Of a stretch of 64,000 nucleotides of DNA, positions 1-57,786 are shown one piece after another. Below the pieces are notes generated by a model, which ran no database searches, was not told the DNA's origin, and saw nothing but the letters and a program-made list of their open reading frames with translations. A program made the position numbers and the translations under genes. The DNA is from a virus. The stretch is from IMG/VR virus record IMGVR_UViG_3300027782_000058, positions 27,080 through 91,079 of that record. One strand, given 5' to 3'. Position 1 is the stretch's first letter. Every line of letters begins with the position of its first letter.

Positions 1-95
1 AGTTGTCATGCGTCGACCTTACTCGTGAATCGTATTCGAAGTCGAGCGAGCGGGCGGAGAACGAGAAAAAATCTTTACTCCGCCCGCCGGGCGGC

Positions 96-215
96 TCACT
101 TTTTCGGTTCTGTCTTCTTCTTGGCTGCAGCGGGCTTTGCCGCCTGAGGAGTTTTTTCAGGGGCGGGCTTAGTCGCGCCGGGCATGTCTTGCGCGCGGAA
201 GTTGGTTTGGGCCAT
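96..215 (-). CDS. 39-aa Lys/Ala/Pro-rich peptide (MAQTNFRAQDMPGATKPAPEKTPQAAKPAAAKKKTEPKK)
   Basis: Not in the ORF track; translated by hand. ATG at 215-213 is preceded by a strong SD (AGGGAGGTG on the minus strand); TGA at 98-96. Confidence 0.6.
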   Translation of the reverse strand: MAQTNFRAQDMPGATKPAPEKTPQAAKPAAAKKKTEPKK

Positions 216-288
216 GAGGGCACCTCCCTTCCTAACTTCGATGGGCATGTCAGAATCGTACCGTTTTCGGTACTGTTCTGCCTTGACA

Positions 289-329
289 TGACAAGGCCCC
301 CACTCCCCGAGAGGAGTGAGGGCTTGTCA
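289..329 (-). terminator. Hairpin downstream of the 339-698 gene
   Basis: Imperfect inverted repeat TGACAAGGCCCCCACTCC / GGAGTGAGGGCTTGTCA. Confidence 0.6.
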
Positions 330-338
330 GGGTGACGG

Positions 339-698
339 TCAGAGTTGGACCAGTCGTCCTAGGTCAAGCACGCGCTGCATGAGCGCGCCCCATGAGCAGT
401 AGTAGTGCATCCCGTACGCGGACCGCGTGCGGGGGTTGTAGGTCCAAGTGGAGTAGGTGTCCACCTTGCTAGGGGCCTCACCGTCGTTCACGGCGTAGGC
501 GTCCTTGAGGGCGATGCCGCACGCGGCACACGGGCGGTCGCCCGCCTCGCCATCGTTCGGCATGTGGAGCATGAACGTCTTACGCATGCGCCGTGCGCCT
601 TCCGCGAGTGCGGCAAACGTGTCCGCCTCATGGTACGCCTTAGCCCCGGTAGTCCACGGCTTGCGGAAGCCGGGGCGGGTAGTGGTCGAAGTCTTCAC
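339..698 (-). CDS. Early cassette protein, hypothetical (CxxC...HxxC)
   Basis: GTG start with CCTAGGGAGGTG RBS; own promoter at 775-747; terminator downstream. Confidence 0.8.
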   Translation of the reverse strand: MKTSTTTRPGFRKPWTTGAKAYHEADTFAALAEGARRMRKTFMLHMPNDGEAGDRPCAACGIALKDAYAVNDGEAPSKVDTYSTWTYNPRTRSAYGMHYYCSWGALMQRVLDLGRLVQL

Positions 699-746
699 TG
701 TCTCACCTCCCTAGGGTGTCTGCCGGGGTTTTCCCGGTCAGGAGTA

Positions 747-818
747 AAACTACCCTAGATCGAGTCAAAAGTCAAATCGAGGGTAGGACTTGCGAATGTC
801 AGAGAACTAGGGTACTCT
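747..818. promoter_or_regulatory. Divergent promoter pair
   Basis: Minus: TTGACT(775-770)-N17-TAGTTT(752-747). Plus: TTGCGA(790-795)-N17-TACTCT(813-818). Confidence 0.75.
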
Positions 819-861
819 GATCCCATACCCCGAAGACACGGGGCAGAACTAGGGAGGCACA

Positions 862-1092
862 ATGTTCACTGAAGTCAACTTCATCATCGACGTTTGCACT
901 GACTGCTACGTCGCCGCCGCTGGAGTCGGGGACGCGGGTGAGACTCCCGAGTACGCCCCCCTCGCTCACTTCGACGGGCAGGGTACGGCAGTGCCCACTG
1001 AGGAAGGGGAGGGCCACTTCAGCAATCACGGGTGCCCCGGATGCGGGTCACCCCTTGCGGGGCAACGCTTTGAGGTCACGGTTCTGAACTAG
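862..1092 (+). CDS. Small 4-Cys (CxxC...CxxC) phage protein
   Basis: AACTAGGGAGGCACAATG start context; CTDC and CPGCGSPLAG motifs; UACG-loop hairpin at 1105-1126. Confidence 0.85.
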   Translation: MFTEVNFIIDVCTDCYVAAAGVGDAGETPEYAPLAHFDGQGTAVPTEEGEGHFSNHGCPGCGSPLAGQRFEVTVLN

Positions 1093-1163
1093 GCGCGAGA
1101 GGTTGCCCCGGCCTACGGGTCGGGGCTTCCCGCCCCCGTCAGGAAACAATTCCGGCGTAAGAC

Positions 1164-1234
1164 TTGCGATCCGATCCAAAGTAGGGTATCTTCGTACTAC
1201 CGCCCCAAACGGGGGCCAAACTAGGGAGGTCACA
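1164..1234 (+). promoter_or_regulatory. Promoter, 5' stem-loop and RBS cassette
   Basis: TTGCGA-N17-TATCTT, GCCCCAAACGGGGGC hairpin, CTAGGGAGG. Confidence 0.8.
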
Positions 1235-1450
1235 ATGCACACACTCATCACCCCCACCCTCACCCTCGCGGGCACCGTTTACTCGGTGTCTGAGCAGTAC
1301 GAGTCCCCTGCGGCTCACTTCACTACCCGCGAGGCTGCAGTGGCCCACGCGGAAGCCCTTAACGCCGCCTACCGGGGTCGATTCAATGACTGTCTTGGCG
1401 ACGACTACTACCCCACGTTCGCGGTGGGGGAGGTCAAGGTCTACTCCTGA
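1235..1450 (+). CDS. Early cassette protein, hypothetical (71 aa)
   Basis: ATG 1235 follows the CTAGGGAGG RBS (the track start at 1103 is too far upstream); hairpin at 1463-1489. Confidence 0.8.
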   Translation: MHTLITPTLTLAGTVYSVSEQYESPAAHFTTREAAVAHAEALNAAYRGRFNDCLGDDYYPTFAVGEVKVYS

Positions 1451-1509
1451 CCACTGGCACGCGCCCCCCGGCCATACGGTCGGGGGGGCATTCACAACGA
1501 CAGAAGGAA

Positions 1510-1878
1510 GTGATCACAATGCAGAACCCAGTGACATTCACGCCCACTGAGGCCGTGATCCTCACTCACCGGCTAGAGGCCCCTGACGCTATCGCTGAAG
1601 CCCTCTCTGACGGCGGGGCACCGTGGACCTACGCGGCCATCGAGGAACGCGCCACCGCCATCCTCTCGGGCTGGAGGGGAGGCAAGTCCCTGACCGTCGA
1701 CATGGGCGACTCGCTCACCCGCGCCATCATCGAGGACTGTTGTGATGGCAGTGTGTTCTTCGCCGCGATGGAGTACGCGGTCGACTACGGAGAAATTACC
1801 CCCGCAAAGGCGCGACACCTTGAGCAAGCGGCGACCACGCTGGAAGCCAAGACGGGGGTGCCGGTTCCACTCGGATAG
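1510..1878 (+). CDS. Hypothetical protein, second gene of the cassette
   Basis: AGAAGGAA SD; phage-like codon use; UACG terminator at 1891-1927. Confidence 0.8.
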   Translation: MITMQNPVTFTPTEAVILTHRLEAPDAIAEALSDGGAPWTYAAIEERATAILSGWRGGKSLTVDMGDSLTRAIIEDCCDGSVFFAAMEYAVDYGEITPAKARHLEQAATTLEAKTGVPVPLG

Positions 1879-2027
1879 CCGCGCGCCTAGCGAGAAGCCT
1901 CATCCCTACGGGGGATGGGGCTTTTCGCATTCCCGTCGCGAGTCGAGGACGCCGCCGGAAAAAATCTTTGCCTCGCCCCCGCGCGGCCCCGCCCCCGGAC
2001 GAATGGAAAGGCTTCACTCGAAAGAAC

Positions 2028-2100
2028 TTGACACCTGTCATAGGACTGGTATAAGGTGTGTATACATCCCAGAGAGGGGTGCCACTAGGGAGGTGGGAAG
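2028..2100 (+). promoter_or_regulatory. Promoter and RBS
   Basis: TTGACA 2028-2033; -10 TATAAG/TAAGGT at about 2050-2057; CTAGGGAGG. Confidence 0.7.
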
Positions 2101-2385
2101 TTGCAGTACCGAATCACTCACCACGCGGCTCGTCAGGCCGCAGTCAAGGGGTTCGCCATCGACGCCGTGATCCGAGCGGCTCAATCCCCGAGCATCACTT
2201 ACCCGAGCGGGAAGCGTCACCCCGGTCAGGTCCGTCACATTCGTGACGGCATCGTCGCCGTCGTGGACCCCGTGACGGCAACGGTTGTCACGGTCTACGA
2301 GAACGTGCGGGAGACCGCGCTACGTCCCGATCAGCGCGACCCGGTGGCGCTGGAGTACGGCAGGCAGTGGGGCAAGCGGCACTGA
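2101..2385 (+). CDS. DUF4258-like (RelE/BrnT-type fold) putative ribonuclease
   Basis: YRITHHAARQ...P...Y...G...IVAVVDP...VVTVY pattern; TTG start after CTAGGGAGG; terminator at 2396-2427. Confidence 0.65.
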   Translation: MQYRITHHAARQAAVKGFAIDAVIRAAQSPSITYPSGKRHPGQVRHIRDGIVAVVDPVTATVVTVYENVRETALRPDQRDPVALEYGRQWGKRH

Positions 2386-2447
2386 CTGACTGAGAGGGAG
2401 GCCCCCACCTACGGGTGGGGGTCTCCCGTTTGTCAGGGGACCCAAAC

Positions 2448-2476
2448 TTGACAGGCAAGGTAGATAGGCGTATTCT
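2448..2476 (+). promoter_or_regulatory. Promoter
   Basis: TTGACA-N17-TATTCT. Confidence 0.8.
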
Positions 2477-2516
2477 TTGAGAGTTGGACTCACCACACAG
2501 ACAAGGGAGAACCGAA

Positions 2517-2861
2517 ATGACGACCACCACCGTCCTCGAACTTGTGGAGGACTACATGCAGGCAATCCGCGAGGCTACGGCCAAGTACTACGCGGACAAC
2601 TACCACCACCTTCAGCCCCCGATGATCTATGCGGAGCCGGGTCGCCGGTTCGCCCGCATCGTGATGGAAGGCTCGAATCAGCGTACGGTCCACGCTTTCG
2701 TGGACATGGAGACCGGCGACGTGATCAAGGCTGCAGGCTGGAAGGCCCCGCAGAAGGACAAGGACGGCCTCGCGGTTCGCTACCACCTCGCCGATGAGGC
2801 TGATCGCGCGCGGTGCTACGCGGCCATCGACCCTCACGGTGGATACCTCTACAAGTGGTAG
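2517..2861 (+). CDS. Conserved phage hypothetical protein (VHAFVD..TGD..KAAGWKAP...GGYLY family)
   Basis: Motif recalled from diverse phages; ATG 2517 after AAGGGAG; UACG terminator at about 2877-2899. Confidence 0.85.
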   Translation: MTTTTVLELVEDYMQAIREATAKYYADNYHHLQPPMIYAEPGRRFARIVMEGSNQRTVHAFVDMETGDVIKAAGWKAPQKDKDGLAVRYHLADEADRARCYAAIDPHGGYLYKW

Positions 2862-3057
2862 CCCTCACGAAGTACGGCCCCCACCTACGGGTGGGGGCTT
2901 TTCGTTTTCGCGCGACGGGAGGACTGGTAACCCTCTCGCCGAAAGGCCCTCGCCGAAAGGCGGGGGCCTTTTCGCGTGCGAATGCGGGCCGGGTGATGGG
3001 AGGTGGCGAAACTTTTTTTCCGGTCATCGCGCGCGAGGTCGCTACGCGCGGGACAAC

Positions 3058-3128
3058 TTGACACTCGGTAGGATGTTCGATAAGGTAGGACTACCGCCCA
3101 ACCGGGGCGCACAACCTAGGGAGTCGAA
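3058..3128 (+). promoter_or_regulatory. Promoter, stem-loop and RBS
   Basis: TTGACA-N17-TAAGGT; GCCCCAACCGGGGC; CCTAGGGAG. Confidence 0.8.
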
Positions 3129-3377
3129 ATGTCCGTCACCACCGTCACCACCTACGCAATCTCCTACACCGCCACTAACCGTAGCGGCGCGGTCCACACC
3201 TACGTTCTGTCAGACCTTGACACCGCCGGTATCGGCGAGGTCATCGCTTCCATGTACGCGCAACGGGATGACTGGTACTGCCGCAACGTCACCATTGCCA
3301 CGATGGGCGGTCAGGTTGTCTACACGTTCGATGGCACCCCGCACGCCGCTACCGTGGCGAGCGTTCTCTCTCGCTAG
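3129..3377 (+). CDS. Early cassette protein, paralog of 5694-5831
   Basis: Cassette context; shares YAISYT...VLSDLD...NVT with the 5694 ORF; GCGA-loop hairpin at about 3394-3422. Confidence 0.8.
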   Translation: MSVTTVTTYAISYTATNRSGAVHTYVLSDLDTAGIGEVIASMYAQRDDWYCRNVTIATMGGQVVYTFDGTPHAATVASVLSR

Positions 3378-3511
3378 TCACGTCCTAGGCCCCGGCCCTC
3401 ACCCTGCGAAAGGGTGGGGGCTGGCTGGCTTTCCGGCCCATATCGCCATGCGGCGGGCTAGATACAATGGCTTGACATTCCTTGCGCGCCCTACCCTGCC
3501 GGAGGCCCACC

Positions 3512-3682
3512 GTGCCGTTTCGCACGTCGTGCGAGCAATGCGAGGGAGTCGCCACCGTGCTAGTGGCGGGCGGTCGCGCGCACGCGCAATGCCTGCCGCT
3601 GCCGGTGGACTTGACGCGGCTCGCTGCCATGCCGCGACTTCCGGATGGGATCCCGTGGCGGTGCCCGTGGTGCGGCGCTTGA
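3512..3682 (+). CDS. Possible 56-aa zinc-ribbon protein (CEQC...CPWC)
   Basis: GGAGG at 3501-3505 then GTG 3512; two CxxC pairs; lacks the standard cassette frame. Confidence 0.5.
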   Translation: MPFRTSCEQCEGVATVLVAGGRAHAQCLPLPVDLTRLAAMPRLPDGIPWRCPWCGA

Positions 3683-3818
3683 AACTTTTTTTCCTCACCT
3701 ACGCGCACACGGCAGGACATCGGGAGTGCTCGGGCTACCGCGACTTCGAGACTTTGCGCGAAAGTCTGCCGTAAGGCTCTCAGACTTGACATGACTTGAC
3801 GCATAGGGCTCTCATGAC

Positions 3819-3890
3819 TTGACAAACGTTCGGATTCGAGTAAACTGGGCACACCGGCCCACAAGGGGCCGCAACCGAAGGGACACCGAC
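3819..3890 (+). promoter_or_regulatory. Promoter, stem-loop and RBS
   Basis: TTGACA-N16-TAAACT, preceded by two more GACTTGAC copies (3783-3800); GGCCCACAAGGGGCC hairpin. Confidence 0.75.
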
Positions 3891-4421
3891 ATGACCACCT
3901 ACGCCCCCCGCACCCGCGTCGCCCGCCCCGCGACCGACCGTCAGGTTGCGTACGCCGAGGCGCTGCTGCTGCAGGTCACCGGCCCTGACAACTTTGACGA
4001 GGCCCGCCTCGCGCTCGCCGAGCGGGGTGGACTCGCCACGGTTGACGCGGCGTCGCGCACTATCGACGCCCTGCGGACGCAGGCCGCTGCCATGCGGACG
4101 CAGGCCCCTCGCGCCGCTGCCCCTCGCGCCGCTGCCACTGAGGCCCTCGCACTGGGCATGTACCGCCGTGACGGTGAGGTCTACCGCGTAGTCGCCTCGC
4201 GGGCCGGTCGCCCGTACGCTAAGCGCCTTGACCCGGCCACGGGTAAGTTTGACTACGCGGCGGGCGCGATCCGCACGCTCACCGCTGCGGACCGTATGAG
4301 CCTCTCCGAGGCTGCCGAGTACGGTCGGGCCATCGGTCGGTGTTGCGTATGTGGCGCGACGCTCACCGACCCCGAGTCGGTCGCCCGTGGCATCGGCCCC
4401 GTGTGCGGGGGGCGAGTCTGA
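3891..4421 (+). CDS. DUF6011-type zinc-finger protein
   Basis: C-terminal CCVCGATLTDPESVARGIGPVC; N-terminal ATDRQ...ASRTIDAL helical motif; UUCG terminator at 4436-4466. Confidence 0.85.
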   Translation: MTTYAPRTRVARPATDRQVAYAEALLLQVTGPDNFDEARLALAERGGLATVDAASRTIDALRTQAAAMRTQAPRAAAPRAAATEALALGMYRRDGEVYRVVASRAGRPYAKRLDPATGKFDYAAGAIRTLTAADRMSLSEAAEYGRAIGRCCVCGATLTDPESVARGIGPVCGGRV

Positions 4422-4591
4422 GGCCCCGAGCGCGAGAGGCCCCATCCCTTCGGGGGTGGGGCCTTCGTCATGTCGTGCGGATCACGCGCGAGCGGCGAGC
4501 GGCAGGCGAGAAAAAATCTTTGCCCTGCCCCCGTCGGGCGTGGAGTCGCGAGAGGTCGCGCGAGTGGTGAGATTCCCTTCCGAGATTCGAC

Positions 4592-4662
4592 TTGACATGC
4601 CGCACGAGGTACGTCATACTGGAGGCATGCCGCAAGGCGCGGCAGCACCTAGGGAGGCAATC
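4592..4662 (+). promoter_or_regulatory. Promoter, stem-loop and RBS
   Basis: TTGACA-N17-CATACT; GCCGCAAGGCGCGGC; CCTAGGGAGG. Confidence 0.8.
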
Positions 4663-4908
4663 ATGACCGACTACACCACGATCACCGGAACCCGCGAGGG
4701 TGTTCGCGCCTACTACTCCGAGATTGCCCCCGGAGTGTGGGAGGCGGAGATTGAGTGGCAGGACGACTACGCTCGCGGTGTCTGGCACAACGCCGGTTGC
4801 GTTACGTTCACCAGTGAGCCCGACCTCGCCGCCATCGTGAGCGCGGTACAGTCCTACTGCTCCGATCAATACGACCGCGAAATGGAGTACCGCTCCACAA
4901 AACACTGA
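4663..4908 (+). CDS. Early cassette protein, hypothetical (81 aa, acidic)
   Basis: ATG 4663 after the RBS; GAAA-loop terminator at 4915-4951. Confidence 0.8.
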   Translation: MTDYTTITGTREGVRAYYSEIAPGVWEAEIEWQDDYARGVWHNAGCVTFTSEPDLAAIVSAVQSYCSDQYDREMEYRSTKH

Positions 4909-5068
4909 CACCCGAAAGATGCCCCGCCCCGAAAGGGTGCGGGGCATCTTTGCGTTTGGGATTGACAATCCGGCGCGCGAGGGGCACCGCCGCACCGTGG
5001 AAAAAATCTTTGCCCACGGGGCGGTCGGGAGTCGCGCGCGGACTGCGAACCATGCCGATGCACTTGAC

Positions 5069-5138
5069 TTGACACTGCCTTAGATCCGAGTAAACTGGGA
5101 CTACCGCCCCGGCAGGGGGCCACACCTAGGGAGACCAA
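5069..5138 (+). promoter_or_regulatory. Promoter, stem-loop and RBS
   Basis: TTGACA-N16-TAAACT; GCCCCGGCAGGGGGC; CCTAGGGAG. Confidence 0.8.
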
Positions 5139-5477
5139 ATGTCCACTGTCATCGCCACCGCCACCCCCACGTCCGCCGCTATCTCGGACGGCATCGTGCG
5201 GGCAAGTGTCGACCTTATGGGACGCAACCGTGAGGGGCGTCAGGAATGGCGCTACAGCATCGCCTGCGAGTCCGAGGCTCAGACTGGCACCGACCTGCGG
5301 ACGGGAGTTGGGGCCACAGAGACTGGCGTCGACATGCTCCGTACCCTCGCGGGATTCCTCGCGGCACACTCCGAGTCCTCCGAGGGCGGCGAGTGTGCGG
5401 ACCTGTTCGATATCTCGCGAGAGGCTACGGAGGCCATCTCCGAGGTCATCTACTACGCGGTCGGGTGGGATGCCTGA
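5139..5477 (+). CDS. Early cassette protein, hypothetical
   Basis: Cassette context; terminator at 5490-5525. Confidence 0.8.
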   Translation: MSTVIATATPTSAAISDGIVRASVDLMGRNREGRQEWRYSIACESEAQTGTDLRTGVGATETGVDMLRTLAGFLAAHSESSEGGECADLFDISREATEAISEVIYYAVGWDA

Positions 5478-5621
5478 CCCGAACGTTCTGAAAGGCCCCG
5501 CATCCGAAAGAGCGCGGGGCCTTTCGCATTGCGCGGGGAGCGCGCGCGGTGGAATCGGAAAAAATCTTTAGACCGCCGCCCCGCCCGTCGCCACGCGCCC
5601 ATCGCCCGGTCCCGATAGAAC

Positions 5622-5693
5622 TTGACAACGCTCGCAGAATCCGGCATACTAGATCCATGCCGCAGGGAGCGGCACTAATCAAGGGAGACTGAA
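5622..5693 (+). promoter_or_regulatory. Promoter, stem-loop and RBS
   Basis: TTGACA-N17-CATACT; GCCGCAGGGAGCGGC; AAGGGAG. Confidence 0.8.
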
Positions 5694-5831
5694 ATGACCT
5701 TCGCAATCGCCTACACCGTGAACACCGAGAACATCGTCCTGTCGGGCCTTGACTCGCAGGGGCTTATCGATGCCGTGCTCTACTCGGCTCAATACGGCCC
5801 CATCACGAACGTCACGGTGTCGTCCTACTGA
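5694..5831 (+). CDS. 45-aa protein (MTFAIAYTVNTENIVLSGLDSQGLIDAVLYSAQYGPITNVTVSSY), paralog of 3129-3377
   Basis: Not in the ORF track; full cassette frame; terminator at 5844-5874. Confidence 0.8.
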   Translation: MTFAIAYTVNTENIVLSGLDSQGLIDAVLYSAQYGPITNVTVSSY

Positions 5832-5889
5832 CAGGCACCGCGCGAGACCCCGGCCCTTACGGGTCGGGGTCTTTCGCTTTCTAGGGGGC

Positions 5890-5960
5890 TTGACAACGTG
5901 ACTCAAACTAGTAGACTGGGGCTACGCCCCGATACGCGGGGCCTGACCTAGGGAGTCACA
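5890..5960 (+). promoter_or_regulatory. Promoter, stem-loop and RBS
   Basis: TTGACA-N16-TAGACT; GCCCCGATACGCGGGGC; CCTAGGGAG. Confidence 0.8.
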
Positions 5961-6098
5961 ATGGCCGTTATGACCACAGAGTGGATCTGTTCCTCATGCC
6001 GTACCGTGTGGGTGAGTGAGGACTACCCGCTTTGCCCGGAGTGCCGCACGGATGAGTGCGCGCTCACGCGCGAGGCGTGGGTTAGGTGGGTACGATGA
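5961..6098 (+). CDS. 45-aa rubredoxin-like zinc-ribbon peptide (WICSSC...CPEC)
   Basis: Not in the ORF track; ATG 5961 after the RBS; stop overlaps the next start (ATGA). Confidence 0.75.
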   Translation: MAVMTTEWICSSCRTVWVSEDYPLCPECRTDECALTREAWVRWVR

Positions 6099-6406
6099 CC
6101 ACCACCCGCAACGCAAACGCCGCTATCGCGTCGTGCGAGACGTTCCGCGCGTCGGCCCTGTCGGGAGTCACCACGGTGCCCGGTGCGGGTCGCCTTGACG
6201 GTGCCGACCGTGATCGGTTCTACGCCGACCGGGACGCTATCGCCTACGCGGTTATGTCCTACGGCACGCCTATCGCGTGGCTCACGCCGCGCGGGTGGCA
6301 CGTCGTGGGCCAGCGTTTCAGCGTCACCACTTCACGACACCAGAGCGTCACCTTGCGGGGCGTGCGCGAGTGGTGCGAACGGTCGGGAGTCACTTGCGTT
6401 TGGTGA
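6095..6406 (+). CDS. Conserved phage hypothetical protein (YAVMSYGTPIAW...FSVTTSRHQ family)
   Basis: Recognisable phage motif; ATGA coupling; terminator at 6424-6459. Confidence 0.85.
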   Translation: MTTTRNANAAIASCETFRASALSGVTTVPGAGRLDGADRDRFYADRDAIAYAVMSYGTPIAWLTPRGWHVVGQRFSVTTSRHQSVTLRGVREWCERSGVTCVW

Positions 6407-6648
6407 CCCGCTAGCCTCCGAGTGAGAGCCCTGCCCCGTTTGAGGGGGGTGGGGCTCTCGCCGTTTCGCGCGCGGCGTGCGGGCGCTCGACGAAAAAAAT
6501 CTTTACCCCCCCGGTGTTTGGCTCGACGGACTACCGAGAGGTGGTCGGGGTCTTCACTTGTCTCCCGGCGGGGTGCGGGGCGGGGCGCGCCCACCCGTGA
6601 CGCTCTCGGGGCGCTATCAAACCGTGACCTAGAAACTTGCGGGAAGTG

Positions 6649-6720
6649 TTGACAGTCTCCCCAAACTCTGACAAACTAGAGGCATGCCCCAAACGGGGGC
6701 ACCACCTAGGGAGGCACCAA
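6649..6720 (+). promoter_or_regulatory. Promoter, stem-loop and RBS
   Basis: TTGACA-N17-CAAACT; GCCCCAAACGGGGGC (identical to 1202-1216); CCTAGGGAGG. Confidence 0.75.
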
Positions 6721-6828
6721 ATGTCACTCACCACCACCACCGCCTACACGGTCACTAGCCTCTGGGATGACGACCTAGAGGACGCACTCTGTGAGTGCGT
6801 TGCCGATGACTGCCCCCTAGATCACTAG
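6721..6828 (+). CDS. 35-aa acidic Cys/His peptide
   Basis: Full cassette frame; UACG terminator at 6842-6865. Confidence 0.7.
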   Translation: MSLTTTTAYTVTSLWDDDLEDALCECVADDCPLDH

Positions 6829-6930
6829 GGGGCAAGCGGGCAGGGGCACCCTACGGGGTGCCCCTTTCGTTGCCCGGCGGGGGTGCGCGGCGGGCGTCCG
6901 GAAACTTTTTTTCGTGCCTCGCGCCCCAGC

Positions 6931-6988
6931 GGCACGGCACGGCCTACGGCAGGGCAGGGCAGGGGCAGGGCAGGGCAGGGCAGGGGGG
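6931..6988 (+). repeat. (GGGCA)n / GGCAC tandem repeat, G-rich
   Basis: Direct reading of the sequence. Confidence 0.85.
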
Positions 6989-7034
6989 TGACGATGACCG
7001 TTATAGAACCGTGACCAAAACTTGCGAGACTGGC

Positions 7035-7106
7035 TTGACACTTGGCAGGCAACTACGGTACTTTCGTTGTATGCCGCAAAGGGCGGCACCAACTAGGGAG
7101 GCACCA
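7035..7106 (+). promoter_or_regulatory. Promoter, stem-loop and RBS
   Basis: TTGACA-N18-TACTTT; GCCGCAAAGGGCGGC; CTAGGGAGG. Confidence 0.7.
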
Positions 7107-7367
7107 ATGTCCAACTACACCTTCACCACCAACACCCCGTTCGTCAACGTCTCTGTCGGTCCGCGTACCGATGTTGCTCAGTACATCTTCCACCTCGCCA
7201 ACGGGGACAGTATCAGCGTTCTCCCCGCCTACGACCCTGCCGACTTCGAGTCGGCGTACATCCCCGCCGGGGACACGTCCGGACGTTGGGATGTTCGTAG
7301 GTGGGACGGCACCGACGCCTCCCCTGAGAGCGTGGCCCTCGCGCACCTCGCGGCACTCACCGCCTGA
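7107..7367 (+). CDS. Early cassette protein, hypothetical
   Basis: ATG 7107 after the RBS; UACG terminator at 7380-7409. Confidence 0.8.
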   Translation: MSNYTFTTNTPFVNVSVGPRTDVAQYIFHLANGDSISVLPAYDPADFESAYIPAGDTSGRWDVRRWDGTDASPESVALAHLAALTA

Positions 7368-7413
7368 CCCTCGCTCACTGGAAGGCCCTCGCTACGGCGG
7401 GGGCCTTCCTCAT

Positions 7414-7451
7414 GCGGCAGGGCGGCAGGGCGGCAGGGCGGCAGGGCGGGG
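7414..7451 (+). repeat. (GCGGCAGG)x4 tandem repeat
   Basis: Direct reading of the sequence. Confidence 0.85.
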
Positions 7452-7478
7452 CCTCCCGAAAAAGTTTGCCGGTAGGTC

Positions 7479-7554
7479 TTGCCATCCGATTCGAAGTACG
7501 GTACTTTTACCTCAGCGCCCCAAAAGGGGCCACAACCTAACCTAGGGAGACACA
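7479..7554 (+). promoter_or_regulatory. Promoter, stem-loop and RBS
   Basis: TTGCCA-N17-TACTTT; GCCCCAAAAGGGGC; CCTAGGGAG. Confidence 0.8.
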
Positions 7555-7782
7555 ATGACCACCACCGCCACCCGCCCCACCCCCACTACCAAGACCGTTT
7601 CCGTTGCCGTTCACCCTAGCGGCGAGTGTTTCGTCGTCACCCGGATCGATGGGTTTTACGACGCGGGTAACGGCTTCCGCGACCGTTCATTCTGGGAGGT
7701 TGTGTTCACCCTCAAGCGGGCAGGCGGGGACGTGCTGCACAAGGTGCCGAACCGCCACTACCGCCCGTGTGAGTGCGGGTAG
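7555..7782 (+). CDS. Early cassette protein, hypothetical
   Basis: Cassette context; GGAA-loop terminator at 7794-7828. Confidence 0.8.
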   Translation: MTTTATRPTPTTKTVSVAVHPSGECFVVTRIDGFYDAGNGFRDRSFWEVVFTLKRAGGDVLHKVPNRHYRPCECG

Positions 7783-7836
7783 TCCGCACCACGGCGAGAG
7801 GCCCCGCCCGGAAGGGTGGGGCCTCTCGCATGTCGG

Positions 7837-7899
7837 GCTCACGGCTCACGGCCTACGGCTCACGGCCTACGGCTCACGGCTCACGGCCTACGGCCTACG
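7837..7899 (+). repeat. Nine tandem heptamers, GCTCACG/GCCTACG
   Basis: Counted directly. Confidence 0.9.
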
Positions 7900-7903
7900 G
7901 CCC

Positions 7904-8068
7904 CCCGTACTTACGGTCACCGCCCTCCCGGACGTGTGGCAGGCCCTGCAGCCTGCCGCCGGATGGCTCACTACCGCGTGGACTGTGGTCGACGGTGCGG
8001 GCCGTGAGTACCGTAGCGACTCCCCCGCCGACGCGGTGGCCTCTACAGGGCAGGAAGGTAGGCCCTAG
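7904..8068 (+). pseudogene. Possible headless cassette gene remnant
   Basis: Protein-like frame (VLTVTALPDVWQ...WTVVDGAGREYRSDSPADAV) followed by a cassette-type terminator at 8081-8117, but no promoter or RBS. Confidence 0.35.
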
Positions 8069-8140
8069 GCCCACGACTCGGAAGGCCCCGACACCCGCGA
8101 GGGAGTCGGGGTCTTTCGTTGTGTCCATGCTCACGCGCAC

Positions 8141-8680
8141 TAACGCACGTTAACGCGCGTTAGCGCGCGTTAGGAATGAGCGACAGGACATGCCCCTATG
8201 CCCCTCAGAGAGGCTCTAGAGCATTAGAACACCCTCATCCTCATGTTCCCCCAGACTCACCCTGACAGGCCCTCAGAGAGGCTCTAGAGCCTCAGGGCAG
8301 GAAGGCAGGGCAGGAAGGTAGGGCAGGGGCTTCCTGTCGGGAGGTAGGGGCAGGGAGGCAGGGGCAGGCAGGCAGGGAGAGAGAGAGAGAGAGGGCAGGG
8401 ACACTCGACAGGCTCACTCGACAGGCTCGACACACTCGACTGACCCTCGACTCGACTCGACTCACTCGACAGGCAGGCACTCGACTCGACTCACTCGACA
8501 GGCAGGCACTCGACTCGACTCACTCGACAGGCAGGCAGGCAGGCACTCGACTCGACACACTCGACACACTAGACATGGCCCTCGACAGGCAGGAAGGCAG
8601 GCAGGGGAAAGGTTTTTTCCCTGCCCTAGTATGTCCGTTTTGCTCTTGATGTCCGTTTTGATCCTTTCTGTCCGTTTTGT
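8141..8680. repeat. Non-coding nested repeat block
   Basis: 10-mer x3 (8141-8173); 21-bp direct repeat (8202-8222, 8270-8290); GGCAGG/(GA)n tract; about 18 CTCGAC including a 29-bp unit x3 (8451-8537); TGTCCGTTTTG x3 (8632-8679). Confidence 0.9.
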
Positions 8681-8801
8681 ACGAAACGATCAGGGGAGGC
8701 CCGCCACATAAGCAGAGCCCACTCACACGCCTAACGAATTTCAACTAAAGGTTCACTTTTTTGCTTGCATCGTCCAACTTCTTCGCCCTAGACTCATCCC
8801 C

Positions 8802-9266
8802 ATGACGCTTCCAGAAGAGGAGACCCTCCTCCTCCGCTCGCTCTCTCAACCAGACCTTCACCCGCGTCTGAAGGCGCTCAACTCCGTTGGCTGGCCGATC
8901 TCGACTCTCGCCAACGCACTCTCCCCCGCACGACCGAAGGCGACCGTCCACTACTGGATCTCCAGATGCCACACGTCCGACCGCCTCGACATCCCGCTCC
9001 CCCACCCCCTCAAGCGCGAGAAGGCAGCACGTCCAGTACGTCCAACCGTCTCCCCGGAGGACGCCGCCACGCTCCGCTCCCTGTCGCAACTCGCACGCCG
9101 CCACCGAGCCCGCCAGCGCCCCGACGCGCCTCAGGCCATCGCGTCCCGAGAACTCACCATCCTCGCCGCACAACTGAACTCCACGGGCGTGCCCACCGCC
9201 GCAATCGCCAAGGCGGCAGGAATTTCCTATCGCGCCATGCACAAAAGGATCACAAACTCTGGTTGA
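8802..9266 (+). CDS. Double helix-turn-helix DNA-binding protein
   Basis: GWPISTLANAL...KATVHYW and GVPTAAIAKAAGISYRAMHKRI; TTGCAT-N18-TAGACT ends 7 nt before the ATG (leaderless). Confidence 0.75.
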   Translation: MTLPEEETLLLRSLSQPDLHPRLKALNSVGWPISTLANALSPARPKATVHYWISRCHTSDRLDIPLPHPLKREKAARPVRPTVSPEDAATLRSLSQLARRHRARQRPDAPQAIASRELTILAAQLNSTGVPTAAIAKAAGISYRAMHKRITNSG

Positions 9267-9274
9267 ATAGGCTA

Positions 9275-9655
9275 ATGCGCGTACGAGCAGATGTCTTCCC
9301 AGCGATCATCGTCGTGACGCCCAACGGCTCTGTGTCCGAGGACACCATCCAGTCCCTCTCCGCACGCAACACCGCGACGTATCCCGAGGGTGCCCGACGC
9401 CTCGACCGCTGCCGGGTCGCAATCATCCAAGACACGATCCTCGTAGCAGTCGACTCGCCGACCGGACCGACCCTCGTCTTCCGCGACGACATCTCCTACC
9501 ACTCCAAGGACGCCACCCGAGAGCATCGGGCCGTGACCGTCTCGGGCAAGGGCCTCGCGTTCATCAAGGACGAGAACTGCGGCTGCGGATCGCGCCTCCG
9601 CAGTTGGAACCCCTACGGCGCTACCGTGACCGCCTACGCGGAGGACTCCGAATGA
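9275..9655 (+). CDS. Hypothetical protein (CGCGSRLRSWNP)
   Basis: ATG 9275 just after the previous stop; ATGA overlap with the next gene. Confidence 0.75.
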   Translation: MRVRADVFPAIIVVTPNGSVSEDTIQSLSARNTATYPEGARRLDRCRVAIIQDTILVAVDSPTGPTLVFRDDISYHSKDATREHRAVTVSGKGLAFIKDENCGCGSRLRSWNPYGATVTAYAEDSE

Positions 9656-9954
9656 CCCAGCAGCGAAGCCTCGTCTCACTCGCCATCTCCGGGCTTGCCA
9701 CCTACCGCGCCACACGACTCGTGACGACCGACCAGATCACCGCCCCGATCCGCGACCGCGTCTGGGAGAAGCATCCCCCGCACACGTCAAAAATTGGATA
9801 CCTTTTCACATGTGACTGGTGTACGTCAATCTACGTCGCATCAGCACTTGAGATTTCCCGTATCATTGCACCTAGGTTGACCTCCAGTGCCGAGACAGTC
9901 CTCGCCCTCTCTGCCGTGGCAGGTCTGCTGTCCGCGCACGAGGACGACATCTAG
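9652..9954 (+). CDS. DUF1360-like membrane protein
   Basis: LATYRATRLVTTDQITAPIR...GYLFTCDWCTSIY. Confidence 0.8.
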   Translation: MTQQRSLVSLAISGLATYRATRLVTTDQITAPIRDRVWEKHPPHTSKIGYLFTCDWCTSIYVASALEISRIIAPRLTSSAETVLALSAVAGLLSAHEDDI

Positions 9955-9995
9955 AGGTCTTCGCGCTCCGACACAACGAGATTGAGAAGGGCCAA

Positions 9996-11660
9996 GTGGG
10001 AATCTTCCGCAGTGAGTCAGACAGTCCGTCGAGCGGACTCGTCCCTGTCATCTCGCCCGCACGCTCCCTCTCGTACTCGGCACCCCGCTCCCTGACGGCT
10101 GCCGCCGCCCAGATCAAGGTCAATGACAAGGGCGAGTTTGAGCAGTTCAAGTCACGCCGCAGCGCCGGTTCCAGCGCGTGGCAGGCAGAGGCTTGGGAGT
10201 ACTACGACGCCATCGGTGAAGTGAAGTACGCCTTCAACCTCGTTGCTTCCGTTGTCTCCCGAATTCGCATCTACTCGGCCATCGTCGAGGATCCCAGCCA
10301 GACTCCCGTGTCCGTCACCGCGTCCCCCAAGGTAGACGCGCGTCTGGCACAGGCCGCAGAGCGCGCGCTTGACCGCCTGACCAGCGCCTACGGTGGCCAG
10401 CCCGGACTCCTGCGCGACGCCGCGCTGAACCTGAGCGTCGCAGGCGAGTGCTACCTCATCCAGATCCCCGCCCAGATCAGCACCGGCACCCCCGAGTCGT
10501 GGGACATCCGGAGCATCGACGAGGTGAAGACCGACCCGCGTGGCGGGTACTCGGTAATCGGACGCCGTGAGGCCGCGAACTCCAACCAGCAGTCAGGTTC
10601 CGCTCGCAGCCTAGGCTCCAAGGCGTTCGTTGGTCGCATCTGGCGCTCGCACCCCCGCTACTCCGACGAGGCTGACTCGTCCCTGCGCGGCCTTCTGGAC
10701 CTGTGCGCCGAACTCCTGCTGCTCAACCGCACCTTCCGCGCCACCGCACGCAGCCGCCTCAACGCTGGCGCGCTCTACCTGCCTGACGGCTTGTCCGTCG
10801 CGGCTCAGGGCGACCCAGACATCTACGAGGATGACTCGGACCTGAACCCTCCGTACACGCAGGAGGAGGCTGAGGACGAGTTCGAGGAGCAGTTGATCGA
10901 CGCGATGACGACGCCGATCCGCGACGAGGAGTCCGCCTCCGCCGTCGTGCCGCTGATCATTCGCGGTCCTGCCGAATTGGGTGACAAGATCAAGCAGTTC
11001 AAGTTCGAACGGTCCTTCGACCCGGCTCTGGCCGAGCGCTCCGACCGCGTGCTTGAGCGCATCCTGCAGGGTCTGGATGTCCCCAAGGATGTCATCACGG
11101 GGCTGGCGAACGTCAAGTACAGCAACGCACTGCAGATTGACGAGAGCCTGTACAAGGCTCACATCGAGCCGCTGATGCTGCTGATCGTTGACGCGCTGAC
11201 CGTCGTCTACCTGCGTCCCTACCTCGTAGCCTCCGGCTTCGCCCCCGACGAGGTTGACCGGATCGTCGTCTGGTACGACCCCTCAGCCGTCTCCACGCGC
11301 AACGACCGCGCATCGGATGCTGACGCCGGGTACGACCGCTACGCCGTGTCACTCGACACTTGGCGTCGGGCGCATGGCTTCTCAGATGCTGACGCTCCCA
11401 CGCCCAACGAGTTGGCGATCCGCATGCTCGCAGAGCGCGGCACCCTGACCCCTGAACTCACCGAGGCCATGCTCTCGGCCCTCGCCCCTCAGGTCATGGA
11501 GGCCGTGCGCGCCGCTCAGCAGGGTGCCAGCGCCGGAGCAATCCCACCGGAGGTTCAGCAGTTGCTCAAGGCTCAGGGGCAGCAGCCCGGCGCAGCGCCA
11601 GAAGCCCCGGCTCCAGCACCAGCACCCGCACCAGAGCAGGGCGGTCAGCCCAATGCCTGA
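9996..11660 (+). CDS. Portal protein
   Basis: WQAEAWEYYDAIGEVKYA, LSVAGECYL, GRIWRSHPR and GLDVPKDV motifs as in cluster-B-type actinophage portals; first large gene of the head operon. Confidence 0.85.
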   Translation: MGIFRSESDSPSSGLVPVISPARSLSYSAPRSLTAAAAQIKVNDKGEFEQFKSRRSAGSSAWQAEAWEYYDAIGEVKYAFNLVASVVSRIRIYSAIVEDPSQTPVSVTASPKVDARLAQAAERALDRLTSAYGGQPGLLRDAALNLSVAGECYLIQIPAQISTGTPESWDIRSIDEVKTDPRGGYSVIGRREAANSNQQSGSARSLGSKAFVGRIWRSHPRYSDEADSSLRGLLDLCAELLLLNRTFRATARSRLNAGALYLPDGLSVAAQGDPDIYEDDSDLNPPYTQEEAEDEFEEQLIDAMTTPIRDEESASAVVPLIIRGPAELGDKIKQFKFERSFDPALAERSDRVLERILQGLDVPKDVITGLANVKYSNALQIDESLYKAHIEPLMLLIVDALTVVYLRPYLVASGFAPDEVDRIVVWYDPSAVSTRNDRASDADAGYDRYAVSLDTWRRAHGFSDADAPTPNELAIRMLAERGTLTPELTEAMLSALAPQVMEAVRAAQQGASAGAIPPEVQQLLKAQGQQPGAAPEAPAPAPAPAPEQGGQPNA

Positions 11661-29371: not shown

Positions 29372-29538
29372 AATCATTCAACTGCAACAGATAGACAACT
29401 AAATAGCCCACAAATAATGTATCATTCAGTATCAGGTGGAGTGCCTCCGCACAGTTATGCGGCTGGAGTCCCTCAGCCTCGACTGATCATCGAATGGCGA
29501 ACGCTCTGTTCGCCACTGACTGCCCCGGAGGAGGGACA

Positions 29539-44261: not shown

Positions 44262-44301
44262 GCTAGACTCGACACACGAGACATGACGAGGATGAATTGA
44301 C

Positions 44302-57783: not shown

Positions 57784-57786
57784 CGT

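Follow-up and report, generated by a model that had tools for sequence, protein, structure and literature searches.

A long array of small-gene cassettes that share one regulatory frame in an uncultured actinobacterial phage

We analyzed a 64,000-nt stretch of an uncultured viral contig (the window; positions below are window coordinates unless a contig position is given) and found that its first 8 kb carry small genes, singly or in pairs, each with a promoter, RNA hairpin, ribosome site, and terminator in one repeated layout. The anatomy of these units, their confinement to the array region, and the unrelatedness of their cargo are demonstrated here. We consider it fairly probable that they are early genes read by the host RNA polymerase, laid out like PeSL cassettes and the SPO1 module, with frames that are likely recombination substrates. 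The cassette design is already known from T4-type and SPO1 phages; here it is unusually regular and belongs to an uncultured actinobacterial phage.

Setting and extent of the array

Positions 339–8117 form the final 8 kb of a ~35-kb series of small phage genes, most of them unknown. The first-pass annotation had counted about 14 cassettes; 14 sites do lie in the window, but the array is longer, running ~27 kb further upstream as far as the contig start. Of the whole array, the window portion lies closest to the virion (structural) genes, and portal, capsid, and tail genes come directly after it, which sets the array in a phage context. The capsid protein is 76% identical to that of Actinomycetia phage DSL-LC01 and 51%–56% identical to those of Microbacterium phages; together with DUF6011, GP88, and DUF732 in the array, these matches support the earlier view that the DNA is from an actinophage. 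The phage is a large uncultured actinophage, kin of DSL-LC01 and of big Microbacterium, Arthrobacter, and Gordonia siphoviruses.

A composite pattern (-35, 16–18 bp spacer, -10, 20–42 nt, AGGGAG or GAAGGGA, 3–12 nt, start codon) matched 13 times on the plus strand and once on the minus strand within 1–9000, exactly at the 14 sites first proposed for the repeated frames, and had 0 matches in the other 55 kb (9001–64000); the mean chance expectation was 0.01 (500 dinucleotide-preserving shuffles). The -35 boxes lie at 775 (minus strand), 790, 1164, 2028, 2448, 3058, 3819, 4592, 5069, 5622, 5890, 6649, 7035, and 7479, and all 14 are paired, as had been claimed, with a -10 (TAnnnT or CAnnCT) at 16–18 bp. 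The unit promoter, (a/g)acTTGACA, 16–18 bp, TAnnnT, is a strong one and fits the housekeeping-sigma consensus. TTGACA occurs 15 times on the plus strand and 0 times on the minus strand (1.4 expected), and CTAGGGAG occurs 10 times on the plus strand (0.15 expected). Array-wide, 20 forward copies of CTAGGGAG and 17 copies of an A-rich element, the A-box, all fall inside the first 35 kb of the contig. Of the 13 plus-strand units in the window, 12 keep a distance of 57–62 nt between the -35 and the Shine-Dalgarno sequence (SD). Some units have extra -35 copies, and other copies are orphaned.

Anatomy of the units

Each unit is named after its -35 box. Unit 775 (289–775), on the minus strand and divergent from unit 790, has its -35 at 775–770, -10 at 752–747, leader hairpin at 741–720, and SD at 711, followed by a GTG at 698, a 119-aa ORF (698–339), and a terminator (329–289). 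Downstream on the same strand (49–228), a 39-aa ORF (215–96), whose coding status is uncertain because its GC3 is only 0.62, has an AGGGAGG SD and is followed by a hairpin (88–49) with an A-box (65–76) in its loop.

All other units are on the plus strand. Unit 790 (790–1134; -10 813–818, hairpin 828–843, SD 852) encodes a Cys-rich 76-aa protein (862–1092; terminator 1092–1134). One ORF per unit had been described, but two promoters precede two genes each (1235 and 1519; 5961 and 6095). The first of these, unit 1164 (1164–1928; -10 1187–1192, hairpin 1202–1216, SD 1224), has a 71-aa ORF (1235–1450), a hairpin (1461–1489), and then a 119-aa ORF (1519–1878) that lacks its own promoter and is followed by a terminator (1890–1928). 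Unit 2028 (2028–2431; -10 2052–2057, hairpin within 2058–2085, SD 2088) carries a TTG-start 94-aa ORF (2101–2385; terminator 2392–2431). Unit 2448 (2448–2905; -10 2471–2476, SD 2505), which has no GC leader hairpin, encodes a 114-aa DUF7717 protein (phrog_818; 2517–2861; terminator 2867–2905), and unit 3058 (3058–3430; -10 3081–3086, hairpin within 3087–3117, SD 3119) an 82-aa protein (3129–3377; terminator 3388–3430). A degenerate unit follows (3472–3682), with an orphan -35 at 3472 that lacks a proper -10 and a GGAGG at 3501; the small ORF that the first-pass annotation would place near 3500 starts behind this -35, at a GTG at 3512 (3512–3682, 56 aa, zinc-ribbon-like Cys pairs), and has no strong terminator.

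The -35 of unit 3819 (3786–4468; -10 3841–3846, hairpin within 3847–3870, SD 3877) is tandemly duplicated (3786, 3796, 3819), and its cargo is a 176-aa DUF6011 protein (phrog_636; 3891–4421; terminator 4432–4468). Unit 4592 (4592–4954; -10 4615–4620, hairpin within 4621–4649, SD 4652) has an 81-aa ORF (4663–4908) and a terminator (4913–4954), followed by an orphan -35 at 4962. Unit 5069 (5064–5525; -10 5091–5096, hairpin within 5097–5120, SD 5129) has a doubled -35 (5064, 5069) and an acidic 112-aa product (phrog_21648; 5139–5477; terminator 5490–5525). Unit 5622 (5622–5877; -10 5645–5650, hairpin within 5652–5680 with the loop AGGGA, SD 5683) carries a 45-aa ORF (5694–5831; terminator 5840–5877). 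The two ORFs of unit 5890 (5890–6463; -10 5912–5917, hairpin within 5919–5949, SD 5951) overlap: 5961–6098 (45 aa) and 6095–6406 (103 aa, phrog_32689), with a terminator at 6419–6463. Units 6649 (6649–6874; second -35-like box 6637, -10 6672–6677, hairpin within 6680–6707, SD 6709; 35-aa ORF 6721–6828, terminator 6831–6874) and 7035 (7035–7416; second box 7022, -10 7059–7064, hairpin within 7066–7093, SD 7096; 86-aa ORF 7107–7367, terminator 7372–7416) share ~45 nt of additional similarity upstream. Unit 7479 (7479–7829; -10 7502–7507, hairpin 7517–7530, SD 7545; 75-aa ORF 7555–7782, terminator 7794–7829) is the last. The plus-strand tail of the array (7832–8117) holds a microsatellite (7836–7902), a promoter-less open frame ending at 8068, which may be a cassette in decay, and, at the end, a terminator-like hairpin (~8083–8113).

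Leader hairpins, gene starts, and terminators

Thirteen of 14 leaders have a 5–6 bp GC hairpin (-9 to -16 kcal/mol) beginning 7–9 nt past the -10; a stem-loop had been ascribed to every leader, and only unit 2448 departs from this. Among shuffled leaders only 15% folded equally well, and among segments drawn at random from the region only 36%. The arms differ yet remain complementary (GCCGC/GCGGC, GCCCC/GGGGC, CCCCG/CGGGG, and CCGGG/CCCGG). The hairpin stands at the extreme 5' end of the transcript and most likely serves as an mRNA stabilizer. The SD takes the form (CU)AGGGAG(G), and the shared frame continues for ~27 nt into the ORFs as a CA-rich, Thr-coding stretch. A+C makes up 72% of the first 27 nt of the ORFs versus 49% of the remainder, and the Thr share at residues 2–10 is 35%, compared with 7% elsewhere and likewise 7% in other genes (P = 1e-6). 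We suggest that these first nine codons are most likely a translation-initiation enhancer that encodes a Thr-rich N terminus. The promoter, hairpin, SD, ORF, and terminator of the unit had been recognized before, whereas this stretch and the A-box had been overlooked.

A very stable hairpin of -24 to -39 kcal/mol lies within ~12 nt downstream of 16 of 18 ORFs, two short of the terminator after every ORF that had been reported; most have UACG/UUCG or GAAA-type loops and a CTTTCG tail. The cargo ORFs span 35–176 aa (35–177 in the earlier description), and all ORFs of at least 35 aa have a GC3 of 0.72–0.85 and therefore look coding. All-against-all BLASTP of the 148 ORFs of the 35-kb array returned two DUF6011 proteins as the sole paralogous pair, in agreement with the claim that the cargo is mostly unrelated. 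The cargo proteins are mostly orphans, and none in the array matched a known function. They may be immediate-early host-takeover or anti-defence genes.

Proposed cassette expression and exchange

We propose that each small gene or gene pair would act as an autonomous, insulated expression cassette, ordered as promoter, 5' GC hairpin, SD, CA-rich codons, cargo ORF, tetraloop terminator, and often A-box. The host RNA polymerase would read all units simultaneously upon entry of the DNA into the cell, and the outcome would be monocistronic mRNA, produced in bursts, for a large set of small accessory proteins. We infer early timing and use of these promoters, and host-directed functions for the cargo. 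Ordinary homologous or short-homology recombination would probably also use the frames as substrates when cassettes are gained, lost, or replaced, as has been proposed for PeSLs (PMC2839356; PMC4122927). A plus-strand module at 56860–59108, comprising a PD-(D/E)XK nuclease (56860–57783), a Sak4-like AAA_24 protein (57787–58578), and a DUF669 protein (58575–59108), could be what drives exchange between short repeats; this nuclease/Sak4-like module is the phage's own and may carry out the cassette exchange. Such exchange would need no integrase.

On indirect sequence evidence, such exchange through the frames is plausible in the window phage. The main alternative, which we regard as possible but rather less probable, is an ordinary early region: the frames would be alike through the need of each gene for a promoter, stable 5' end, SD, and terminator, would have no special recombination role, and turnover would proceed by generic illegitimate recombination. 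Indeed, conserved frame positions are mostly the functional ones, and frame likeness could stem from selection on expression signals alone. Yet identity is in surplus at spacer and post -10 positions: non-core positions are alike at a mean of 9.4 of 27 (6.8 by chance), and eight frame pairs are alike at 14 or more of them (0.23 expected). The frame homology is 47–72 nt long and runs through the ATG. The promoter spacers of units 1164 and 7479, first described as near-identical, match at 13 of 16 positions, and the leaders at 1202 and 6686 do share an identical 15-mer, as had been noted. Variants of the -10 co-occur with leader variants (units 4592 and 5622 combine CATACT with the GCCGC hairpin), which argues against an ordinary early region, as do the upstream similarity of units 6649 and 7035 and the tandem -35 duplications; frame classes could nevertheless reflect regulation instead of lineage. 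There is no neighbor effect on frame similarity inside the window (rho 0.06, P 0.66), a result in favor of an ordinary early region. Also in its favor, ~5 near-identical assemblies carry every cargo protein tested, and therefore no presence/absence polymorphism is seen at short range, which speaks against rapid turnover. Public homologs of adjacent cargo, by contrast, range in identity from 98% to as low as 53%, an indirect sign of exchange. Against an ordinary early region, a cassette with DUF7717 has been relocated between DSL-LC01 and an IMG/VR relative, both with a different frame type, and the relocated piece runs exactly from promoter to terminator.

Possible silencing, the A-box, and a hairpin-promoter alternative

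A further proposal, compatible with host-read, exchangeable cassettes and an addition to that reading, is coordinated shut-off, in which a trans-acting factor would bind the leader hairpin and CUAGGGAG and silence all cassettes after the early phase. We hold this to be unlikely. An RNA-binding protein of the phage might be this factor, as might a candidate small RNA that lies 3.9 kb upstream of the window and whose two loops both read ACUCCCUA. The ORF-less element (contig 23,037–23,170) has two perfect stems (z = -5.45), and its 8-nt loops are exactly complementary to UAGGGAGU, although an 8-nt pairing is short. Pairing with the anti-SD of 16S rRNA does not need CUA before GGGAG, and the conservation of this CUA beyond such needs favors shut-off, as do AGGGA leader loops in unit 5622 and in three units at contig 19.6–21.7 kb, among others. 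Against this, the element is seen in a single genome, and the first 50 kb of DSL-LC01 hold no element complementary to its own SD.

The A-box GAAAAAATCTTT, a 12-bp A-rich sequence, is the most sharply conserved element, with 15 of its 17 exact 12-mers oriented with transcription. The plus-strand copy at 1958–1969 has exact counterparts at 65, 4510, 5000, and 5558, and altered versions are found at 3008, 3681, 6492, 6901, and 7458. It stands a fairly fixed 11–45 nt past a terminator hairpin and a variable 10–144 nt ahead of the next -35. These features would suit an integron-like system with the A-box as the recombination site at the cassette 3' end for a putative recombinase, but we judge such a system very improbable: the scanned ORFs yielded no integrase or recombinase domain, the A-box flanks lack significant inverted repeats (z about -1 to +1, the copy at 65 excepted), 4 of 14 units have no A-box, and the cassettes have promoters of their own. 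The A-box could equally be a stoperator-kind operator or the counterpart of the AT-rich stretch in a PeSL-like composite. The stoperators of mycobacteriophage L5 are likewise short, conserved, transcription-oriented intergenic repeats scattered through a phage gene block, but are reportedly repressor sites of a temperate phage (Brown et al. 1997). The promoter-carrying intergenic repeats of halovirus HF2 resemble the A-box in the same respects, but HF2 infects archaea and its promoters are archaeal (PMC8707807).

Most improbable of all is that the hairpins, with their short stems, small loops, and fixed position, are N4-type DNA-hairpin promoters for an injected virion RNA polymerase and the -35/-10 boxes incidental: a 3121-aa ORF does lie within the head-gene cluster, but its product shows a DEDD exonuclease domain only and no polymerase domain, canonical -35/-10 boxes at correct spacing precede every hairpin far above chance, and loop and stem sequences are not conserved.

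Comparison with known systems

DSL-LC01 (OQ999401) and IMG/VR relatives are true relatives of the window phage. DSL-LC01 shares with it an AAA_5 plus CobT-like gene pair inside the array and the same layout, in which every small gene has its own promoter, leader, SD, and terminator and the array precedes the terminase/portal genes. The 30 units of its early array have a different frame: the -10 is of an extended type (TGTTATAAT) and sits within a short palindrome, the leader is AC-rich and has no hairpin, and the SD is GAAAGGA. Only ~10 genes are common to the two phages, some in permuted order (DUF7717, DUF6011, and an endonuclease-like gene), a point in favor of exchange. The paper describing DSL-LC01 makes no mention of promoters. 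Pumpernickel carries many promoters of its own in the left arm, and the array architecture is common to the phage family.

Likeness to SPO1 had also been proposed, rightly so. The SPO1 host-takeover module lies inside the terminal redundancy, with 26 genes in 12.4 kb, and its products have been shown to shut off host functions (Stewart et al. 1998; PMC6873191). Both phages have, at one side of the genome, a block in which small early genes form many short operons, and every operon has a strong promoter of host type and a strong ribosome site (PMC6873191). The window phage has about three times more DNA in its array, its contig is a fragment, and its cargo proteins are predicted from sequence.

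The proposed likeness to PeSLs (promoter-early stem-loop cassettes) of T4-type phages (Arbiol et al. 2010, PMC2839356; Comeau et al. 2014, PMC4122927) is likewise right and agrees in composition with the published PeSL definition; PeSL function was defined by close-relative breakpoints and mini-circles, whereas the likeness here is one of composition. The window phage differs in belonging to an unrelated lineage (an actinophage with siphovirus-type tail genes) with a high-GC genome, in an extra hairpin in the mRNA leader downstream of the promoter, in an AT-rich part that is a sharply defined 12-mer, in a frame that continues into the first codons, and in a far denser and longer array (~35 kb in one block). 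In both, a GC stem-loop terminator, an AT-rich stretch, a sigma-70-like promoter, and an SD recur in many copies, clustered in a region of small orphan genes, with degraded "half" copies, duplicated -35 boxes, and a consensus that varies between phage lineages.

One promoter frame is repeated along the array

The first-pass annotation had proposed about 14 expression cassettes at window positions 339-8117, with -35 boxes at 775 (minus strand), 790, 1164, 2028, 2448, 3058, 3819, 4592, 5069, 5622, 5890, 6649, 7035, and 7479. A promoter scan that required a downstream SD and a start codon recovered all 14, each with a -10 box of the form TAnnnT or CAnnCT at a spacing of 16-18 bp. A regular expression for the composite frame, i.e., the shared regulatory part of these units, gave 13 plus-strand matches and one minus-strand match in window positions 1-9,000, at exactly the same coordinates, and none in the other 55 kb of the window; the mean expected by chance was 0.01 (500 dinucleotide-preserving shuffles). 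A stricter consensus scan found seven promoter-like sites, with 1.0 expected. In 12 of the 13 plus-strand units, 57-62 nt separate the -35 box from the SD.

The housekeeping sigma factor of actinobacteria has the consensus TTGACA, ~17 bp, TAnnnT. The frame boxes fit this consensus, and the virion and replication genes lack them. Since the boxes fit the consensus and are confined to the array, the simplest reading is that unmodified host RNA polymerase would transcribe the array genes, and hence that they would be expressed early.

The array extends far upstream of the window

The record that holds the window is linear, 91,079 bp long, and 54% complete by CheckV estimate. Copies of CTAGGGAG (20 in forward orientation), composite frames, and a 12-bp A-rich box, GAAAAAATCTTT (the A-box), span this contig from its start region to ~35,200 and then end. 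The count of about 14 cassettes thus holds for the window, but the array as a whole is far longer and runs nearly from the contig start to ~35,200. The class of frame depends on the region: leaders are AC-rich and unstructured at contig 7-13 kb, fold into a hairpin with loop AGGGA at 19.6-21.7 kb, and have GC hairpins in the window. Over all 25 units, frame similarity declines with distance (rho -0.25, P 0.001); within the window this effect is absent (rho 0.06, P 0.66).

The A-box is the most sharply conserved element of the array and the commonest 12-mer of the contig, with 17 exact copies between contig positions 2,236 and 32,648, 15 of them forward, i.e., in the direction of transcription, and two reverse. 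Exact copies lie at window positions 65, 1958, 4510, 5000, and 5558, and variants at 3008, 3681, 6492, 6901, and 7458. Copies and variants sit 11-45 nt past a strong terminator hairpin and 10-144 nt ahead of the next -35 box; this closeness to the terminator and variable distance to the next promoter place the A-box at a unit's 3' end. Candidate functions are those of a stoperator-like operator, of a patch of AT-rich DNA for recombination, and of a reserve stop signal. Placing the A-box in the loop of variable inverted repeats was tried and rejected, as its flanks pair no better than shuffled sequence, except for the copy at 65. An IMG/VR scan for the A-box with its flanks returned only single chance matches among the matches listed.

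Units combine a leader hairpin, a CA-rich start, and a terminator

A GC hairpin of 5-6 bp (-9 to -16 kcal/mol) is present in 13 of the 14 leaders, where it begins 7-9 nt past the -10 box and so stands at the predicted transcript start; the leader of unit 2448 lacks it. Folding was equally good in only 15% of leaders after shuffling and in 36% of segments drawn at random from the region. The arms vary from unit to unit yet remain complementary (GCCGC/GCGGC, GCCCC/GGGGC, CCCCG/CGGGG, and CCGGG/CCCGG), which argues that the structure is what is kept. Leader structures were taken from per-unit folds; a MAFFT alignment of the leaders set several hairpins out of register, and no pair counts were drawn from it. 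No known RNA family scored above its gathering score in Rfam. Stem-loops at the 5' terminus protect transcripts against 5'-end-dependent decay, as in ompA-type leaders and the 5' stabilisers of Bacillus, and the leader hairpins may likewise shield the mRNA 5' end.

At the other end of the units, a terminator hairpin (-24 to -39 kcal/mol) follows within ~12 nt of 16 of the 18 ORFs; in most cases its loop is UACG/UUCG or of GAAA type and its tail CTTTCG. Of the two ORFs that lack it, one is overlapped by its downstream neighbour and the other is that of the degenerate unit 3,472-3,682. Terminators of this strength would insulate the individual units.

The shared frame extends beyond the start codon into coding sequence. 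Nucleotides +4 to +30 of array ORFs are 72% A+C, compared with 49% in the remainder of the ORFs, and threonine makes up 35% of residues 2-10; its share is 7% both further along these proteins and at the N-termini encoded by 23 other genes (P = 1e-6). Families of repeats, 47-72 nt long, begin at the -10 box or the hairpin, cross the ATG, and reach codons 8-10. CA-rich sequence just past the start is known to enhance translation, and these codons may raise translation initiation. Together, host promoter, 5' stem-loop, CA-rich start, and terminator suggest a unit designed to yield one small protein quickly, in quantity, and independently of the other units.

The cargo genes are mutually unrelated

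All ORFs of at least 35 aa have a GC3 of 0.72-0.85, which supports their coding status. The cargo had been described as mostly unrelated. When 148 ORFs of the whole array were compared, the single protein-level match was between two DUF6011 proteins; a second, weak match was the translated frame itself. Pfam and PHROGs identify only DUF7717 (2,517-2,861), DUF6011 (3,891-4,421), and three PHROGs with no assigned function. Domain and look-alike searches of the cargo gave no functional match, and an ESM Atlas look-alike search with two cargo proteins yielded nothing usable on function. Homologues of the DUF7717 cargo occur in cyanophages and in phages of Klebsiella and Caulobacter; this presence in unrelated phages shows that at least some cargo is exchanged widely. 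Scans, folds, terminators, GC3, and cargo comparison all agree with the first-pass annotation, whose observation is correct in every detail checked.

Several other proteins are encoded in the upstream array (L207:14598-17646 and L207:18272-18913, in an upstream part of the contig). An AAA_5 ATPase and its 615-aa partner are 60% and 47% identical to proteins of the Actinomycetia phage DSL-LC01 (OQ999401), and a histone-deacetylase-domain protein, GP88, and DUF732 proteins are encoded there as well.

The array lies in the genome of a large actinophage

Virion genes follow 3' of the array: the portal (window 9,996-11,660), an ORF of 3,121 aa (12912-22277) flanked by the portal and head-protease genes, a fusion of protease and scaffold (1,498 aa), the major capsid protein (29,494-31,449), and the major tail protein with adaptors. 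Next come DNA polymerase A, a SNF2 helicase, a PD-(D/E)XK nuclease, an AAA_24 (Sak4-like) protein, DUF669, and WhiB. Pfam matches the 3,121-aa protein only at residues 1515-1621, to a DEDD (RNase_T) exonuclease; Microbacterium phage Pumpernickel has a 2,235-aa gene at the equivalent position. The assignment to an actinophage was borne out by the capsid, which is 76% identical to that of DSL-LC01 and 51-56% identical to those of Microbacterium phages of ~190 kb; identity to large Arthrobacter and Gordonia phages is 46-52% over the C-terminal two-thirds only. The portal has ~600 relatives in IMG/VR at 71-80% identity, the majority with 42-54% GC. These relationships place the phage in a large, mostly uncultured actinophage group.

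A repeat-rich, gene-poor zone (window ~7,836-8,680) separates the array from the virion genes. It consists of dense microsatellites and nested tandem repeats with units of 7, 14, 21, and 29 bp, including three 19-bp repeat units at 8631-8679; tandem repeats upstream of the portal also occur in three relatives (L010, L028, and L046). Cassette spacers also contain G-rich (GGCAG)n runs, at 6948-6985 and 7414-7449. GC3 follows a strong gradient (window 36868-50902 versus 1-12000), with 0.7-0.9 in array genes and portal, 0.71 in the capsid gene, and 0.46-0.53 in tail genes. The genome looks mosaic in composition, or else its early and highly expressed genes look more adapted to a high-GC host.

Relatives keep the architecture with a different frame

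Among 50,697 phage records, neither megablast nor blastn found a match to the region, and protein-based scans of the accessible IMG/VR and JGI metagenome records with the cargo at 4663-4908 and 1519-1878 found none either. Every cargo protein tested has near-identical copies in public protein collections, on ~5 contigs, which argues against rapid presence/absence variation. Contigs that carry such cargo or its homologues measure 83,203 and 64,522 nt (JGI/IMG), 27,348 nt (Logan), and 1,728, 1,658, 692, 609, 530, and 521 nt (ENA). Public assemblies contain both near-identical and 50-90% diverged relatives. Diverged homologues are 98% identical for ORF 5,694-5,831, 88% for 4,663-4,908, 63% for 5,139-5,477, and 53% for 1,519-1,878, the last with its first 11 residues unchanged. 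The 98% homologue of ORF 5,694-5,831 and the 53% homologue of ORF 1,519-1,878 may be neighbours on the 1,728-nt ENA contig; in the window, 3.8 kb separate the two genes. This pattern would fit cassette-wise replacement, but the fragments may derive from more than one phage.

DSL-LC01 carries a frame of its own in 30 near-identical copies (L089:22600-43400), which precede small genes and consist of an extended -10, TCTAAAGATGTTATAAT, within a short palindrome, an AC-rich leader, and the SD GAAAGGA. The same type of frame is found in further IMG/VR contigs (L216/L279/L235, which represent one phage, L266, and L240). Only ~10 array genes are common to our contig and DSL-LC01; an AAA_5/CobT-like pair is colinear between them, and DUF7717, DUF6011, and an endonuclease-like gene stand in permuted order. 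With the same architecture and a different frame in DSL-LC01, the DUF7717 cargo thus carries the local frame in each phage. Contigs with the DSL-type frame are mostly colinear with one another, and single cassettes have been lost, gained, duplicated, or moved. Between DSL-LC01 and an IMG/VR relative, similarity of the DUF7717 cassette runs from the promoter motif to just past the terminator, with unrelated flanks. The movement of DUF7717 is thus that of an exact promoter-to-terminator unit, as seen in relatives with the other frame type.

The DSL-LC01 genome paper does not mention promoters, and a literature text search for such arrays in actinophages returned nothing specific. The left arm of Pumpernickel (L328:1-19400) begins at the physical genome end and holds ~50 small genes. 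Many of these have individual TTGACA / TAGACT promoters, and several seem to be leaderless, their -10 lying just 6-7 nt ahead of the ATG.

Frames may serve exchange, coordinated shut-off, or both

Frames resemble each other beyond their core boxes. At non-core positions (spacer, inner -10, and the eight bases beyond), mean identity is 9.4/27, compared with 6.8 predicted by composition, and eight frame pairs share at least 14 such positions, compared with 0.23 expected. Leader variants travel with -10 variants, and units 6,649 and 7,035 have an additional ~45 nt of upstream similarity. Homologous frames with unrelated cargo suggest that frames were copied beside new genes or that genes were inserted between resident frames. 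Tandem or orphan -35 boxes occur at 3,472, 3,786/3,796, 4,962, and 5,064; 'half' elements and slipped -35 copies of a like kind have been described for the promoter-early stem-loop (PeSL) cassettes of T4-type phages (PMC2839356; PMC4122927).

The phage also encodes candidate machinery: the PD-(D/E)XK nuclease, AAA_24 (Sak4-like), and DUF669 genes lie in a row at window 56860-59108. Known phage systems for single-strand-annealing recombination have this set of genes, and the module would be enough for exchange between imperfect repeats of 50-70 nt. We give a role of the frames in recombination about an even chance. A more elaborate scheme treats the array as a capture platform with self-homogenising frames. 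Here, A-box, promoter, hairpin, SD, and the first nine codons would form a standard junction at which short-homology recombination by the phage would bring in, exchange, and reorder foreign ORFs with no need for an integrase; each captured protein would gain the same Thr-rich N-terminus, and a small RNA with two anti-SD loops would silence the whole cassette class after the early phase. As one joint reading of capture and class-wide switch-off, we consider this scheme improbable.

The frame as a target for class-wide silencing is an attractive reading in its own right and is compatible with the others. An ORF-less element at contig 23,037-23,170 (L208:5958-6091), 3.9 kb upstream of the window, has a fold z of -5.45 and forms two perfect hairpins, both with the 8-nt loop ACUCCCUA. 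This loop complements, base for base, the shared SD UAGGGAGU, whose CUA prefix is otherwise unexplained. The element lies 3' of a terminator and a TGnTACACT extended -10, and a T-rich tail follows the hairpins. We propose it as a candidate anti-SD small RNA, putatively repressing CUAGGGAG-led genes; a search of the first 50 kb of DSL-LC01 for an anti-SD element was negative.

We give low weight to two further readings. First, the A-box might act as the recombination site of integron-like cassettes, but its flanks are not significant inverted repeats and form no attC-like structure, no domain of a tyrosine integrase, which in integrons accompanies attI beside the array, was found in the ORFs scanned (these included part of the contig's small ORFs), and all units carry their own promoter, whereas integron cassettes are promoter-less and end in an imperfect inverted-repeat attC. 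Second, leader hairpins might be promoters for an N4-like virion RNA polymerase, but the 3121-aa protein has no polymerase domain, hairpin stems and loops vary in sequence, and the canonical -35/-10 boxes would be left unexplained.

Comparison with known systems

The ways in which phages acquire and reshuffle their many small orphan genes are still argued mostly from T4-type phages. The array adds another example, very regular and unrelated to the first, from a phage group that is widespread in freshwater and soil and in which the regulatory frame changes while the architecture stays constant. For high-GC hosts, the units provide small and insulated parts for gene expression, made up of promoter, 5' hairpin, SD, CA-rich start, and tetraloop terminator, and the ~18 cargo proteins of the window are candidates for host-directed functions.

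The resemblance to PeSL cassettes that had been proposed holds in composition: terminator stem-loop, AT-rich stretch, sigma-70-like promoter, and SD recur as a repeated composite, with the A-box as the counterpart of the AT-rich stretch in the published one. As with PeSL, the units crowd into a hyperplastic region whose genes are small and mostly orphan, and frames are absent from the other 55 kb. PeSL function is defined by breakpoints in close relatives and by mini-circles that arise from recombination between flanking motifs (PMC2839356; PMC4122927). Unlike PeSL, which were described in T4-type myoviruses, the array accompanies portal, capsid, and tail genes that match actinophage siphovirus families. 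The likeness to the SPO1 host-takeover module (summarised in PMC6873191) likewise stands: in both, small genes lie clustered together and have strong ribosome sites and promoters of host type. That module sits in the terminal redundancy, is expressed first, and its products shut off the host. The array lies on a linear fragment, estimated to be 54% complete. The phage is unrelated to both the PeSL phages and SPO1, and we rate the array as a variant within a known category, not as a new category.
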